64,000 bases of DNA from a phage: sequence record PZ445488.1. One strand, written 5' to 3'. Below the pieces are notes generated by a model that saw only the letters and a list, made by a program, of their open reading frames with translations, ran no database searches and was not told where the DNA came from. The stretch's first letter is position 1; the number at the start of each line of letters is the position of its first letter. Positions 38,595-50,424 of this stretch are shown one piece after another. Position numbers and translations under genes: made by a program.

Positions 38595-38671
<77 letters not shown>

Positions 38672-38674
38672 AAT

Positions 38675-44448: not shown

Positions 44449-45024
44449 TTGTTATTTACATTCTTCGACCCAATAGGATATAGTGCTAAAACAGTTGATA
44501 AGAATGCACCTACTATTCCTATGACAGACATATTTCGTAACTATAAAGAGTACTTTAAACGTGTTGCTGCCAATTATAGATTACGTTCTTATTACATTAA
44601 AGGCTCTCCACGTCCTGAAGAACTAGCAAACATAATTTATGGCAACCCTCAATTATACTGGGTCCTTTTGATGTGTAATGATAACTATGATCCGTATTAT
44701 GGTTGGATTACATCTCAGGAAGCAGCGTATCAAGCGTCTATTCAGAAATATGCAAATGCTGGTGGAGACCAAATTCTTTACCATATTAACGAGAACCGTG
44801 AGAAATTTTACAATTTAGTTTCATATCCAGACGAGCCTTTAGTGTGGTATGATAAAGGTGATGAAGCTCGTAAGTATCCGCAATATAAAGGACCTTTAGC
44901 TGCAGTAGATACTTATGAAGCGGCAATATTAGATAATGAAAAACTTCGTAAAATAAAAATTGTTGCAAAAGAAGATATAAACTCGTTTATTACTGATTTG
45001 ATTCGTGAGATGGAGATTGCATAA
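44449..45024 (+). CDS. 53: baseplate wedge protein gp53 (apparent TTG start)
   Basis: 191 aa; MLFTFFDPIGYSAKTVDKNAPTIPMTDIFRNY...; GGAAGGAG SD 7 nt upstream of TTG. Confidence 0.8.
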   Translation: MLFTFFDPIGYSAKTVDKNAPTIPMTDIFRNYKEYFKRVAANYRLRSYYIKGSPRPEELANIIYGNPQLYWVLLMCNDNYDPYYGWITSQEAAYQASIQKYANAGGDQILYHINENREKFYNLVSYPDEPLVWYDKGDEARKYPQYKGPLAAVDTYEAAILDNEKLRKIKIVAKEDINSFITDLIREMEIA

Positions 45025-46760
45025 TGGAAATGATTAGCAGTAGCCTTAATTGGTTCGTGGGTGTTGTTGAGGACAGAATGGACCCATTAAAACAAGGGCG
45101 AGTTCGAGTTCGAGTCGTTGGTCTTCATCCAGCACAGAGAGCACAAGGTGATGTACAAGGTATTCCTACAGAAAAACTTCCGTGGATGACTGTTATTCAA
45201 CCTATTACGTCTGCATCAATTTCAGGTATTGGTGGTTCTGTTACAGGTCCTGTTGAAGGAACTCGAGTATATGGTCATTTCTTAGACAAATGGAAAACAA
45301 ACGGGATTGTACTTGGTACATACGGCGGAATCGTACGTGAAAAGCCTAATAGACTTGAAGGTTTTTCAGACCCGACTGGCCAATATCCGCGACGTTTAGG
45401 TAATGATACGAACGTATTAAACCAAGGTGGTGAAGCTGGTTATTATTCAAACTCTAACGTAATTCAAGATAACAACTTGGATTATGGTATAAACCCAGAT
45501 GATACAGATTTAGCAAATATTCCAGAAGATGATGACCCTAATTTTACAATAACAGAAATGTTACGTCGTGACGAAGGACTTCGTGATAAAGTGTATTGGG
45601 ACCATCTAGGGTATCCTACAGTAGGTATTGGACACCTTATCGTAATGGAAAAGACCCGAGATATGTCTCGAATTAATAAATTGTTATCTGATCAAGTAGG
45701 GCGTGAAGTAACAGGAAATCCCGGGACTATTACATTAGAAGAAGCAACAGCGTTATTTGAGAAAGACCTTGCTAAGATGCAGAAAGATATTCGTTCTAAT
45801 TCTAAAGTAGGTCCTGTTTATGCCAAAATGAATAGGTCTCGCCAAATGGCATTAGAAAACATGTGCTTCCAAATGGGTGTTGGCGGTGTAGCAAAATTCA
45901 ATACTATGCTTAAAGCAATGGCCGCAGGCGATTGGAAAACTGCATACAAATCTGGGCGTGATTCGTTATGGTTCCAACAGACTAAAGGACGTGCTTCACG
46001 CGTAACAACAATTATTTTAACTGGTAACATGGAATCATACGGTGTTCCTGTTAAAACACCACCTTCGCCTGGTGTTGGTGCCGATTTAGTTACTAGAAAT
46101 ACAGATCCAGAAGATCCGGCTAGTCCTCCTGTTCCATTAGATTCACGTATCCTTTTTAAAGAACCGGAATCAAGTTATCGTGGTGAATACCCGTATGTTC
46201 ATGCTATGGAAACAGAAAGCGGACATATCCAAGAGTTTGACGACACTCCAGGTAATGAACGTTATCGCTTAGTTCATCCAACAGGGTCATATGAGGAAGT
46301 TTCTCCATCCGGTCGTCGTACTCGTAAAACTGTAGAAGACCTTTTTGACATCACTAATGGCGATGGGAACTTCTTGATTTCTGGTGATAAACTTGTTAAC
46401 GTTGGTGCTAATGAAATATATTATAACATGGCAGACCGCCTCCATCAAATAGATGGCAGCGACACAATCTTTATTCGTGGTAACCAAACTAAAACTGTTG
46501 AAGGCGATGGAACTCTTTACGTTAAGGGCAATATCAAAATAGTTGTTGACGGAAATGCAGATATTCTTGTTAAAGGTGATGCTAAAACTCAGGTTGAAGG
46601 GAATCATGATTACACCGTCAACGGAAACGTTAAATGGACTGTTAATGGTAATGTTGATATGACTGTTGCCGGGAATTGGGCAGAAACAATGTCTACAATG
46701 AGCTCAGTAGCTTCAGGACAATACACAATTGATGGTAGCCGTGTGGATGTCGGGTTATAA
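45024..46760 (+). CDS. 5: baseplate hub subunit and tail lysozyme gp5
   Basis: 578 aa; N-terminal OB domain, central T4-lysozyme-like domain (GIGHLIV...), C-terminal VxGxxxxxx beta-helix repeats. Confidence 0.93.
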   Translation: MEMISSSLNWFVGVVEDRMDPLKQGRVRVRVVGLHPAQRAQGDVQGIPTEKLPWMTVIQPITSASISGIGGSVTGPVEGTRVYGHFLDKWKTNGIVLGTYGGIVREKPNRLEGFSDPTGQYPRRLGNDTNVLNQGGEAGYYSNSNVIQDNNLDYGINPDDTDLANIPEDDDPNFTITEMLRRDEGLRDKVYWDHLGYPTVGIGHLIVMEKTRDMSRINKLLSDQVGREVTGNPGTITLEEATALFEKDLAKMQKDIRSNSKVGPVYAKMNRSRQMALENMCFQMGVGGVAKFNTMLKAMAAGDWKTAYKSGRDSLWFQQTKGRASRVTTIILTGNMESYGVPVKTPPSPGVGADLVTRNTDPEDPASPPVPLDSRILFKEPESSYRGEYPYVHAMETESGHIQEFDDTPGNERYRLVHPTGSYEEVSPSGRRTRKTVEDLFDITNGDGNFLISGDKLVNVGANEIYYNMADRLHQIDGSDTIFIRGNQTKTVEGDGTLYVKGNIKIVVDGNADILVKGDAKTQVEGNHDYTVNGNVKWTVNGNVDMTVAGNWAETMSTMSSVASGQYTIDGSRVDVGL

Positions 46761-46778
46761 ATAATTCAGAGGTAAATT

Positions 46779-47240
46779 ATGAAGAAATCCAAAACCATAC
46801 AATTCCGTTACATTTATAAATCAACAGTAACCAACCCAAAGGGGTTGGTTCGAATATATATAGGAAAGCATGAATCCAGATATTTTAATCTAGAGGATGA
46901 TAATTACGTAGGAAGCGGGGATTATATACAAAAGATTAAAAACAAACCAGGCTATGCTATAGATTTCGAAATTATCGAATTCGTTTCAACACTCGATGTT
47001 TTAAATGAAAGAGAAAAATTTTGGATATCTGAATATAGAAAAACAGGCCAGTGTGTTAATATAAAAGACGGTGGAGATGGATTTTCTTCAAACGATTTAA
47101 AACGAATGTGGTCTAATCCTGAGTATCGAGAAACTCAACTTAAAGCTTTGGCAAAAGGAAAATCTACAAAAGAATTTTCAGAAAAATTTCAAAAATTAAT
47201 AAACTTAGATGTTCGGAATCTGAATATCGAAAGAAAATGA
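46779..47240 (+). CDS. GIY-YIG homing endonuclease, catalytic N-terminal part (frame 1 of split gene)
   Basis: RYIYKSTVTNPKGLVRIYIGKHES...YVGSG...EREKFWISEY = GIY-YIG motifs; C-terminus begins NUMOD-like repeats. Confidence 0.65.
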   Translation: MKKSKTIQFRYIYKSTVTNPKGLVRIYIGKHESRYFNLEDDNYVGSGDYIQKIKNKPGYAIDFEIIEFVSTLDVLNEREKFWISEYRKTGQCVNIKDGGDGFSSNDLKRMWSNPEYRETQLKALAKGKSTKEFSEKFQKLINLDVRNLNIERK

Positions 47241-47641
47241 GTAATGCGATGAAAACTGCTTTTGAAAATGATCCCACATTAAAAATTCGTATTTCTAATA
47301 CTGTCAAATCTTTATGGAAATCCGATGAATATAGAAACAAATTAATTAATCATCCAGGAAAAATAGAAGGAACGAAAAAATCCTGGAATAATCCTTTAAT
47401 AAGAAAATCAAGATTAGATACTAGAAATAAAAAACTAAGATCAGTTGAACCTTGGATTAGTATTGAAAAAGTCAAAAAACTTTGGGAGGATTTGGGAAAA
47501 CCTCATCCGCAGAAATATAAATGGTTTAGAGAAAAAGCAATTGAACATAATCTACCGGATGTAAGTTATAACGCAATTTTAAAAGCATTGAAAAAATGTG
47601 ATTATAAATTTACACCATTGGAGAATTCAATAATTGGCTAA
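47237..47641 (+). CDS. homing endonuclease C-terminal DNA-binding part (frame 2 of split gene)
   Basis: Repeated W-x-[SN]-x-E-Y-R-x-K-L-like modules; reading frame is open upstream of its ATG back to 47144. Confidence 0.5.
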   Translation: MSNAMKTAFENDPTLKIRISNTVKSLWKSDEYRNKLINHPGKIEGTKKSWNNPLIRKSRLDTRNKKLRSVEPWISIEKVKKLWEDLGKPHPQKYKWFREKAIEHNLPDVSYNAILKALKKCDYKFTPLENSIIG

Positions 47642-47675
47642 TATACTTCCTTTAAATACCGACTTAGGAGAAGAC

Positions 47676-48149
47676 ATGGAAGGGGCGTCTATTGACGTCC
47701 TTTTTACTCCACAGTTAGAAACAACCGAAACTTTAGTGTCAATAAATATAACAGATTATGAACCGACACAAGGCATTACGGTGGACGGTAATCGTTTATA
47801 TGGAACATATGAAAGTGTGTTTAGCTTTTCTTCTGATGCATTGAAATACCGATTAAATGATGATTTTGAAACCGCATCTTCATGGGATGATTTACCAAAA
47901 GATGAGTCAACACAGTTATATTTGTGGAGAGCTCCTCAGAATCTTCGTAAAGTGTTTAGTTATACGGTTGAAATGATTTATAACCACCAAGAAGAAAGTT
48001 CATCAGGCGGTTCTAGAAGTGACTCTGGTACAGAACCTCCACCGGCTCCAGTACAAAAAACTCTTACTAAGGTTTATACAAAAACTATAGTAGGAAATTG
48101 GAGCAAATGGGCTCATCAATTACGAAACTATGTTTATGTGAGGCCGTGA
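47676..48149 (+). CDS. hypothetical protein
   Basis: Track start is TTG; ATG at 47676 with AGGAG SD ([10 protein letters not shown]...). Confidence 0.5.
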
Positions 48150-48151
48150 AA

Positions 48152-48445
48152 ATGTCTGGTTTAAGTTACGACAAGTGCGTTACAACAGGTCATGAAGCAT
48201 GGCCTCCTACTGTAATAAATGCTTCCCAATCTAAAGTGTTCACCGGCGGTATTCCTGTTCTTGTGGCAGGAGACCAAATAACACCTCATACAGAAATTAA
48301 AAAACCATACGAGACTCATGGAGGTGTTACTGAACCTCGTACATCTAAAGTATACATCACCGGTAAAAAGGCCGTTCAAATGGCTGATCCAATTTCATGC
48401 GGTGATACTGTTTCTCAGGCCTCGTCAAAAGTCTTTATAAAATAG
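48152..48445 (+). CDS. 5.4: PAAR-repeat spike tip protein gp5.4
   Basis: 97 aa from ATG 48152: [21 protein letters not shown]...; near-identical to recalled T4 gp5.4. Confidence 0.85.
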
Positions 48446-48453
48446 GAATTAAA

Positions 48454-50424
48454 ATGGCAAACACTCCTGTAAATTATCAATTAGCCAGAACAGCGAATGC
48501 TATTCCCGAGATTTTTATCGGTGGTACATTTGCCGAAATCAAACAAAACATTATCGAATGGCTCAATGGGCAGAATGAATTTCTTGATTATGATTTTGAA
48601 GGTTCACGCTTAAATGTATTGTGCGACCTTTTAGCATATAATACTCTTTATATCCAACAGTTCAGTAATAGTGCAGTGTATGAAAGTTTTATGCGTACTG
48701 CAAACTTGCGTAGTTCTGTTGTACAAGCGGCTCAAGATAACGGATATCTGCCTTCATCTAAATCAGCAGCACAAACAGAAATTATGCTCACATGTACGGA
48801 TGCATTAAATAGAAACTATATCACTATTCCACGTGGTACTCGTTTCCTGGCGTATGCTAAAGGTACTTCTGTAAATCCATATAACTTTGTTTCCACCGAA
48901 GACGTCATTGTAGTTAAAGACAAAAATAATCAATATTTCCCACGTCTTAGGTTAGCTCAGGGACGTATTGTTCGCACTGAATTAACATTTGATAAATTAA
49001 AACCTATCATTATTCGTGATAAGAACATTGACCGTAATTTGGTTAAATTGTATGTTGACGGAGCAGAATGGATTAACTGGACTCGCAAATCGATGGTTCA
49101 TGCTGGTTCTACTTCAACCATTTATTATATGCGAGAAACTGTTGACGGGAACACTGAATTTTATTTTGGTGAAGGTGAAATCTCTATTAACACATCAGAA
49201 GGTGCTTTAACATCCAACTACATTGGTGGCCTTAAACCTGTCCAGGGTTCTAAAATCGTAATTGAATATATTTCTACTAATGGTGCTGAAGCAAATGGTG
49301 CAGTAGGATTCTCTTATGCTGATACATTAGCTAATATCACAGTTATTGGAATTAATGAAAACCCAAGTAATAACCCTGACTTCGTTGGTGCGGATGGTGG
49401 TGGCGACCCTGAAGATATTGAACGTATCCGTGAATTAGGTACAATTAAACGTGAAACTCAACAACGATGTGTGACTGCAACCGATTACGACACATTCGTC
49501 TCTGAACGATTTGGTTCTATTATTCAAGCGGTTCAGACATTTACGGATTCATCTAAGCCTGGGTACGCATTTATTGCTGCTAAACCTAAGTCTGGGTTAT
49601 ATTTGACTTCCGTCCAACGAGACGATATTAAAAATTATCTTAATGAGTATAACTTAGGGACGATAACTCCTGTTGTTATTTCTCCTGATTATTTGTTTAT
49701 TAAAATGAATATTCGCGTTACGTATGCATTGAACAAATTACAAGAATCTGAACAATGGTTAGAAGGCCAAATTATTAATAAAATCGACCGGTATTATATT
49801 GAAGACGTGGAAATTTTTAACTCGTCATTCGCAAAATCTAAAATGCTAACATATGTCGATGACGCAGATATTTCTATCATTGGTTCGTCTGCGACTATTC
49901 AAATGGTTCGCGAGGTACAGAACTTCTACAAAACACCTGAAATAGGTATTAAATACAATAACCAGATTAAAGATAGAACATTAGAATCTAACGTGTTTTC
50001 ATTTGATAGTTTACGCGTTGACCCTGAAACAGAAGCTACTATTAAATACGACGTTCGCATTGTAGGTTCAGATAGAAATGACCGTGGCATTGGACAAGTT
50101 ATCATTGGTCCGTTTGCAGATGGCGACGTTATAGAAAACGCTTATATTCAACCATATACTGGTGACGATTTTAATAAACTTCATGTTACGGACGGAAGAA
50201 ACAAATATTACTCTATAGGTGAAGTAAATTATCCGGCTGATTCAATTTATTGGAATATAGCTAAAATTGATTTAACTTCTGATAGGTTTGAAGTTCAAAC
50301 TATTGAACTCTATTCAGACCCAGCTGATGATGTTATCTTTACTAAAGACGGGTCATTAATTGTATTTGAAAATGACTTACGTCCACAATATTTAACCATA
50401 GATTTGGAGCCTATTTCACAATGA
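48454..50424 (+). CDS. 6: baseplate wedge protein gp6
   Basis: 656 aa; MANTPVNYQLARTANAIPEIF...; T4 gp6 size and order. Confidence 0.9.
   Translation: MANTPVNYQLARTANAIPEIFIGGTFAEIKQNIIEWLNGQNEFLDYDFEGSRLNVLCDLLAYNTLYIQQFSNSAVYESFMRTANLRSSVVQAAQDNGYLPSSKSAAQTEIMLTCTDALNRNYITIPRGTRFLAYAKGTSVNPYNFVSTEDVIVVKDKNNQYFPRLRLAQGRIVRTELTFDKLKPIIIRDKNIDRNLVKLYVDGAEWINWTRKSMVHAGSTSTIYYMRETVDGNTEFYFGEGEISINTSEGALTSNYIGGLKPVQGSKIVIEYISTNGAEANGAVGFSYADTLANITVIGINENPSNNPDFVGADGGGDPEDIERIRELGTIKRETQQRCVTATDYDTFVSERFGSIIQAVQTFTDSSKPGYAFIAAKPKSGLYLTSVQRDDIKNYLNEYNLGTITPVVISPDYLFIKMNIRVTYALNKLQESEQWLEGQIINKIDRYYIEDVEIFNSSFAKSKMLTYVDDADISIIGSSATIQMVREVQNFYKTPEIGIKYNNQIKDRTLESNVFSFDSLRVDPETEATIKYDVRIVGSDRNDRGIGQVIIGPFADGDVIENAYIQPYTGDDFNKLHVTDGRNKYYSIGEVNYPADSIYWNIAKIDLTSDRFEVQTIELYSDPADDVIFTKDGSLIVFENDLRPQYLTIDLEPISQ

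Follow-up and report, generated by a model that had tools for sequence, protein, structure and literature searches.

Results

Two reading frames downstream of gene 5 are the halves of one endonuclease gene

The two open reading frames (ORFs) located between genes 5 and 5.1 of the phage DNA analysed here belong together as halves of a single free-standing homing endonuclease gene of the GIY-YIG (Seg-like) type, encoding 287 aa when intact, and this gene is probably an ordinary decaying homing endonuclease gene that was recently frameshifted when one A was lost at a slippage hot spot. The DNA is a stretch of 64 kb of a T4-like phage (hereafter the window), assigned by megablast to the genus Mosigvirus with 96-97% identity to Mizar, APCEc01 and others. 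Judging by sequence identity, the window phage is CEV1 or a near-clone thereof, since two draft contigs of CEV1 from 2014 match it near-perfectly (KM389388 corresponds to 27034-47156 with 0 mismatches and two T-run length differences, KM389399 to 47474-49885 with three mismatches) and since the exact gp5 of the window was found in the gene index on one contig only, that of the CEV1 draft. The gene order around the two ORFs, in positions of the window, is as follows:

44449-45024, gene 53
45024-46760, gene 5 (baseplate hub and lysozyme)
46779-47240, plus strand, ORF1 (153 aa)
47237-47641, plus strand, ORF2 (134 aa)
47634/47676-48149, plus strand, gene 5.1 (likely true start ATG 47676, with GGAG at 47667-47670)
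48098-48445, gene 5.4 (PAAR)
48454-50424, gene 6

In the preliminary description of this DNA, the endonuclease had been placed between genes 5 and 5.4. It does lie 3' of gene 5, but its true slot is 5/5.1, and 5.4 follows 5.1. The ORF of gene 5.1, as called mechanically, starts with TTG 47634 and overlaps the stop codon of the endonuclease gene (seg); in T4, F2 and ZQ3, the ATG equivalent to 47676 is annotated. Mosigviruses without seg carry an extra in-frame ATG GCA CAA at gene 5.1, so an upstream 5.1 start was removed by the insertion. We considered whether gene 5.1 might be translationally coupled to the stop of seg, which would give ORF2 a reason for remaining open; this proved unnecessary as an explanation, because gene 5.1 has its own GGAG and ATG 47676.

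Both ORFs were found as previously described. The frame of ORF2 is -1 relative to that of ORF1, the stop of ORF1 and the start of ORF2 overlap in ATGA, and the frame of ORF2 is indeed open upstream to 47144, encoding ...ISKINKLRCSESEYRKK ahead of its ATG. The phages F2 (QIG57562.1) and vB_EcoM-ZQ3 (QWY13391.1), whose proteins are named 'Homing endonuclease' in UniRef, carry the same gene in the same slot and with the same cassette edges, as an intact gene of 864 nt and 287 aa that is annotated as a single CDS and is 99.7% identical to 46779-47641. The window differs from these copies at three places in total, namely by a missing A and by two substitutions, of which the one at 47224 (G to T) is synonymous in the original frame and the one near the 3' end (G to A) leads to V285I. 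Alignment to the intact genes of F2 and ZQ3 located the single indel that had been predicted to fuse the ORFs near the A-runs at ~47185-47215: inside this interval, a run of six A (A6) is shortened to five (A5) at 47182-47186, the letters being CAGAAAAATTTC in the window and CAGAAAAAATTTC in the intact alleles. Thus, the F2 and ZQ3 copies have A6 and one ORF, and the window copy has A5 and two ORFs. The parts of the split gene are:

46769-46772, plus strand, Shine-Dalgarno-like GAGG, 6 nt 5' of the ORF1 ATG, read from the sequence
46779-47240, plus strand, ORF1, in which 136 native residues, comprising the GIY-YIG domain and the first of the linker repeats, precede 17 out-of-frame residues
47182-47186, plus strand, frameshift site, A5 run (A6 in intact alleles), by alignment with intact alleles
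47237-47641, plus strand, ORF2, covering the last 134 residues of the protein, with linker repeats and a C-terminal domain of DNA-binding type, starting at the internal Met154

Past Lys136, ORF1 continues with the 17 out-of-frame residues FQKLINLDVRNLNIERK and terminates with a TGA stop at 47238. Direct reading of the sequence ahead of the ORF2 ATG revealed no Shine-Dalgarno sequence. With the A restored, the window protein is identical to P0156 (287 aa), which is present on at least 24 long contigs; neither ORF1 nor ORF2 of the window had an exact match in the protein collection searched. Nuclease and DNA-binding region are thus joined in one polypeptide in F2, ZQ3, the T6-type phages (see below) and metagenome contigs, but not in the window. 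Since ORF1 is no longer joined to ORF2, the split gene has most likely lost its function as a site-specific nuclease, as far as its sequence tells. Recent inactivation had been one of three causes proposed for the split, next to a homopolymer sequencing error and a programmed frameshift, and it is the best supported of them: the intact gene is 99.7% identical and only two other substitutions separate it from the broken copy.

With respect to the programmed frameshift, the idea is not absurd: were tRNA-Lys to slip by -1 on G-AAA-AAU (47181-47187), the peptide made would be exactly that of the wild type, EKISKINK. For homing endonucleases, very low expression suffices (PMC2988022). Some full-length enzyme could accordingly be made from A5 by a -1 ribosomal slip or by transcriptional slippage, but the two-frame layout is not conserved: in 33 phage records and in dozens of metagenome and read-archive contigs the gene forms one uninterrupted ORF, and neither ORF was found as an independently conserved unit in the relatives. 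Moreover, the overlap of the two frames offers only A AAA UUU and A AAA UGA and no canonical X XXY YYZ heptamer, and the sole downstream hairpin is weak (z = -2.2) and begins 21 nt away, where 5-9 nt would be expected. For efficient slippage of RNA polymerase, a run of five A is too short. We therefore regard recoding as very unlikely, and the proposal of a programmed frameshift finds no support in the layout of the relatives, the slippery sequences or the placement of structure.

Assignment of the nuclease and DNA-binding regions

The GIY-YIG catalytic motifs described for ORF1 are in place (Y11-I12-Y13, Y27-I28-G29, E79 and N94), and the domain that they define is the following:

46803-47081, plus strand, GIY-YIG catalytic domain, residues about 9-101, with Y13, Y27-I28-G29, E79, N94 and G98-G99-x-G101

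ORF1 matched PHROG 314 'homing endonuclease' with E=6e-18. A full HMMER scan yielded 1257 relatives, 60 of which were used for the profile and for domain counts. The profile of these 60 homologs matched the catalytic domain of I-TevI (1LN0) with E=4.8e-10, with Y13, Y27-x-G29, E79 and N94 on motif positions. Y13, Y27 and G29 are invariant or nearly so among the 60 homologs and align to the IYQ/VYVG motifs of I-TevI; E79 and N94 align to E75 and N90 of I-TevI, N94 being invariant and E79 conserved in at least 90% of the homologs. R34 is present as well, but the profile alignment puts R27 of I-TevI in an insertion, and no Arg column is conserved in the 60 homologs. The domain agrees with the GIY-YIG alpha/beta fold. 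In Pfam scans, neither ORF1 nor ORF2 nor the intact protein gave a match, the thresholds of PF01541 and PF19835 not being reached, and NCBIfam scans of the same three proteins returned nothing meaningful. Among the 60 homologs, 25 matched PF19835 (SegE_GIY-YIG), 20 matched PF01541 (GIY-YIG) and 13 matched NUMOD3; in view of the 20 and 25 homologs matching the two GIY-YIG families, the failure in Pfam points to divergence rather than to a different fold.

The NUMOD-like repeats ascribed to ORF2 stand up in part. ORF2 has four repeats of the type W-x-x-P-E-Y-R, and NUMOD3 occurs in the 13 homologs mentioned, but ORF2 itself has no Pfam match; from its sequence, 'NUMOD-like' seems a fair description of these repeats. 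The C-terminal part of ORF2 matched the PADLOC homing-endonuclease model with E=9e-5, and a phmmer search of PDB sequences with ORF2 returned nothing. An AlphaFold model of the full 287-aa protein, based on an alignment of 6 sequences, was of low quality (pLDDT 54) and yielded nothing but noise in Foldseek.

In overall design, the intact protein resembles I-TevI of the T4 td intron (1LN0/1MK0), in which a GIY-YIG domain is likewise connected through a long linker to a DNA-binding domain at the C-terminus; I-TevI differs in being intron-encoded and in having another DNA-binding domain, with no sequence match to ORF2. Closer in location is SegC of T4 (NP_049761.1), a free-standing GIY-YIG endonuclease in the baseplate cluster from gene 5 to gene 6, which is 32% identical to the intact protein over the N-terminal 122 aa (E=3e-8). 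SegC differs in that its gene occupies the slot 5.1/5.3 and encodes 140 aa without the long C-terminal region. The earlier remark that T4 carries a seg gene near gene 5 is right insofar as segC exists, but segC occupies the adjacent slot, 5.1/5.3, and is a distant relative rather than an ortholog. We rejected segC as an ortholog because of the different slot and because the similarity is confined to the N-terminal 122 aa.

The A5 allele occurs in other assemblies

The cluster of proteins at 90% identity to which the intact gene belongs includes one 153-aa and one 134-aa member, and the contigs of these carry A5. The same A5 was found in a Logan assembly (L012, SRR1518976), with one SNP relative to the window, and in an ENA metagenome scaffold (L013, SAMN11097773), with one SNP in the gene. 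The gene 5.1 flank of the ENA scaffold is ~25% divergent, starting immediately past the seg stop, so this scaffold represents a different phage background. The last 34 nt of the Logan contig (positions 869-902) are unrelated, GC-rich and adapter-like, so that this contig end is not phage DNA. Since the same A5 is present in two other public assemblies, one of them with different flanks, it would seem to be a real circulating allele, and a one-off sequencing error is unlikely; the Logan assembly may, on the other hand, not be independent of CEV1. We also asked whether the T at 47224 could serve to trace the A5 alleles to a common ancestor, and dropped the idea because T is the majority state among intact alleles. 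Exact 35/36-mers across the A5 or A6 site gave 0 matches in IMG/VR and JGI metagenomes, so the allele frequency cannot be derived from these collections.

If the A5 in the record were a sequencing or gap-closure error, the phage would truly have A6 and an intact gene. The frameshift site does lie inside a gap of 317 bp (47157-47473) between the two CEV1 draft contigs, which was closed separately; a repeat elsewhere in the window that could have caused this contig break was searched for and not found. In addition, the sole differences between the window and KM389388 in 20.1 kb are a T8 (37476) and a T6 (44356) in the window, which are T7 and T5 in the draft, so that either homopolymers were miscalled in one of the records or the stocks differ. 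The split gene also shows no further decay, having only the two substitutions relative to F2. This has to be weighed against the A5 being assembled independently in L012 and L013, the latter with different flanks, and against the integrity of the other genes compared: with the 119 ORFs of Mizar as reference, no other gene was found to be split over two frames in window 1-48520, and full length was seen for every baseplate and tail ORF (genes 6 to 15) between 48454 and 63513, so that no second split gene was found in the 64 kb. Finally, frameshift alleles of the same gene at a different site, a (TA)n repeat, occur on 15 contigs from several samples (see below), from which we conclude that natural decay of this endonuclease gene is common. 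A homopolymer error is thus an unlikely cause of the split, albeit one with some footing in the assembly history. Runs of A6 are, for their part, slippage hot spots in T2, T4 and T6 (bioRxiv 10.1101/2025.10.21.683753), and breakage by frameshift or splitting is recognised as a signature of homing endonuclease genes (PMC10448857).

An insertion cassette at the gene 5 / gene 5.1 junction

The gene is present in 35 of 186 matching phage records and absent from T4 and most Mosigviruses, in which gene 5 is directly followed by 5.1; like Seg-type genes, it thus stands alone between conserved neighbours and is found in some close relatives but not in others. Comparison of both types of junction delimited a cassette with the following parts:

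46736-46760, plus strand, recoded last 8 codons of gene 5 plus new stop TAA (46758-46760), left cassette edge
46756-46763, plus strand, TATAAATA, exact T4 late-promoter consensus, overlapping the gene 5 stop and present in seg+ phages only
47633-47641, plus strand, ATTGGCTAA, the original gene 5 end (I-G-stop), which now ends the endonuclease ORF, right insertion edge

In T4 and Mosigviruses without seg, gene 5 ends with ...GGATC(G/T)(A/C)G(G/T)ATTGA(C/T)ATTGG(C/G)TAA, and in all seg+ phages with TAGCCGT.T.GA.GT.GG.TTATAA instead, the recoding of the last eight codons being synonymous. With slashes marking the junctions, the T4 arrangement without seg reads ...ACAATTGATGGATCGAGGATTGACATTGGCTAA/TATACTTCC..., and the seg+ arrangement reads ...ACAATTGATGG/TAGCCGT.T.GA.GT.GG.TTATAAATAATTCAGAGGT.AATTATG...seg.../ATTGGCTAATATACTTCC. 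The TATAAATA motif may serve as late promoter of the cassette, if its match to the consensus is taken at face value; in the window as a whole, the motif is not enriched (9 found vs 8.6 expected).

The T4-type sequence of gene 5 reaches at least 50 nt further upstream in F2 than in the window and ZQ3, a difference that looks like a co-conversion tract of variable length. An altered target in the carrier together with flank co-conversion, as known for Seg-type genes, is accordingly seen here at the level of sequence. From this anatomy we infer a homing-type insertion with a target spanning the 3' end of gene 5, and the insertion anatomy makes this 3' end, ...ATTGATGGATC.CG.ATTGA.ATTGG.TAA, the likely cleavage target in DNA without seg.

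Another mobile nuclease shows a presence/absence polymorphism in the same phages: Mizar carries a homing-endonuclease-like gene, CPT_Mizar140 (NUMOD3 + DUF559; 40010-40885 of L009), between tRNA genes, and the window has only ~75 bp at the counterpart of this site (about 38598-38674).

The T6-type allele and mosaicism of the C-terminal half

About 30 T6-like Tequatroviruses, among them T6 (BBF63565.1), ACG-C40, PST-like Yersinia phages and the Shigella phage vB_SsoM_113 (CAA7537962.1), carry an intact homolog of 867 nt and 288 aa in the same slot, which is annotated in vB_SsoM_113 as 'Seg-like homing endonuclease, GIY-YIG family'. This T6-type allele shares with the window the slot 5/5.1, the recoded gene 5 end, TATAAATA and the domain order. 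It differs in the N-terminal half, where nucleotide identity is only ~72% and synonymous sites are saturated, and in lacking the A6 run and the (TA)n repeat. No broken copies of the T6-type allele were seen in the 30 genomes or the 15 listed cluster members.

The divergence between window and T6 type is unevenly distributed. ORF2 is 96% identical to residues 155-288 of the T6 protein, and 47243-47602 (within ORF2) shows 90-98% nucleotide identity to T6 (L007), compared to 63-87% for gene 5, the N-terminal half of seg and gene 5.1 versus the T6 type; expressed as divergence between the two allele types, 2-10% in this island stands against 22-35% in the three other regions. Synonymous divergence falls in parallel, with a pS of 0.21 in the C-terminal half against 0.82, and this parallel drop argues that the C-terminal half was recently exchanged by recombination and not that the protein is under extra constraint. 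By this comparison, the C-terminal half is best described as a recent recombinational mosaic between the allele types. The same mosaicism is seen in the cluster members P0158, P0160 and P0165, which have mixed linker sequences.

The N-terminal half contains a further element:

46829-46850, plus strand, perfect 9-bp hairpin with a 4-nt loop inside ORF1 (codons 17-24), AACCAACCC AAAG GGGTTGGTT

The hairpin encodes VTNPKGLV, a subfamily-specific insertion in the GIY/YIG loop. The T6-type allele encodes the same peptide with another perfect hairpin, TACTAATCC GAAA GGATTAGTA, which differs by three two-sided synonymous third-position changes. The fold z-scores are -3.3 for the window and -4.4 for the T6 type, and L028 and L029, alleles that are more distant, preserve most of it. 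On the minus strand, the hairpin is followed by a U-rich stretch, which gives it a terminator-like look.

Repeat-length variation among natural alleles

Besides the A-run, a second simple repeat of the gene varies in length:

46854-46862, plus strand, ATATATATA repeat encoding IYI of the YIG motif, of wild-type length in the window

In natural contigs, the ATATATATA repeat is expanded by +2 nt (L022-L024) or by +4 nt (L021, L025 and L026). Expansion of (TA)n abolishes the nuclease domain and leaves a C-terminal ORF of 178 aa (P0159), which was found on 15 contigs from several samples and in two flanking backgrounds. Natural isolates are therefore polymorphic for repeat length within the coding region, with A5/A6 at gene position 404 and (TA) of +0, +2 and +4 nt at position 76. 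The protein P0164 (244 aa) was disregarded because it stems from a chimeric scaffold end.

These data raise the question of a reversible on/off contingency locus, in which slippage at A6 and (TA)n would toggle the endonuclease, and A5 would be an 'off phase' and not a dead gene. All natural disruptions are indeed changes in the length of simple repeats (A6 to A5, (TA) by +1 unit and by +2 units) and occur in more than one flanking background, and the T6-type allele, which lacks both repeats, is full length in all its 30 genomes and 15 listed cluster members. Simple sequence repeats of at least 6 bases mutate at about 3e-4 in T2, T4 and T6, and a +1A insertion in the A6 run of rIIA reverted about 10,000x more than a point mutation (10.1101/2025.10.21.683753). 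However, the repeats are short, and slippage hot spots would give the same pattern without any adaptive role. The independent events are few (3 to 6), and four A6 runs of the C-terminal half are without variants, although in a sample of little statistical power. We know of no benefit from turning a homing endonuclease off, which we count against such a switch as well. There remains a small chance of reversible switching, for the reason that the disruptions are confined to two simple repeats missing in the T6-type allele, and we rate it as quite unlikely. If it is combined with a low level of wild-type protein made by a -1 slip, so that A5 would be the reversible off state of a selfish nuclease at a phase-variable locus, we still consider it improbable, if marginally less so.

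The disruptions also bear on the question of whether ORF2 could be useful alone, as a free DNA-binding domain that is re-initiated at the ATGA and acts as a regulator or as an occupant of the target site. The C-terminal ORF, of 134 or 178 aa, is intact in all three kinds of natural disruption, and the shared ATGA of the ORF1 stop and ORF2 start would suit re-initiation. Yet the ORF2 ATG lacks a Shine-Dalgarno sequence, the low C-terminal divergence between the allele types extends to synonymous sites (pS as given above), and the disruption events are few and recent. A function of ORF2 by itself is therefore extremely unlikely in our view.

Discussion

The evidence assembled here favours recent decay, and the history of the locus may be pictured as follows. 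A Seg-like GIY-YIG gene entered the genome precisely at the junction of genes 5 and 5.1, as part of a cassette that brings along a recoded copy of the last eight codons of gene 5, the late-promoter-like TATAAATA and its own ribosome-binding site. In a co-infection, the intact 287-aa enzyme would cleave the gene 5/5.1 junction, the putative target, of relatives lacking seg, and recombinational repair would then copy in the gene plus flanks of variable length. In CEV1 or a near-clone, replication slippage presumably shortened A6 to A5; the frame thereby shifts after Lys136 and runs into a stop 17 codons on, unlinking the nuclease half (ORF1) from the DNA-binding half (ORF2).

Comparable events have been described in other homing endonuclease genes. 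In the phage ICP1, the genes of gp115-gp116 are split by a frameshift (PMC10448857), and I-TevIII of T4 is inactivated by a deletion (PMC2988022). As in the window, nuclease and DNA-binding domains were separated or lost in these cases by a small mutation, variably among close isolates; they differ in belonging to HNH nuclease families and to other phages. What is mildly unusual about the present gene is that the same broken allele occurs in more than one background and that the natural disruptions all lie in two short simple repeats.

For the annotation of this and related genomes, it follows that both ORFs should be entered as a single frameshifted gene for a Seg-like homing endonuclease and not as two hypothetical proteins. 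The enzyme encoded by the intact gene of F2, ZQ3 and T6 is annotated but uncharacterised, and the 3' end of gene 5 as its likely target makes a direct test possible. Together, the intact, A5-frameshifted, (TA)n-frameshifted and absent alleles provide a natural series for the cycle of invasion, decay and loss in T-even phages, and the same series could reveal whether short simple repeats make such decay reversible.
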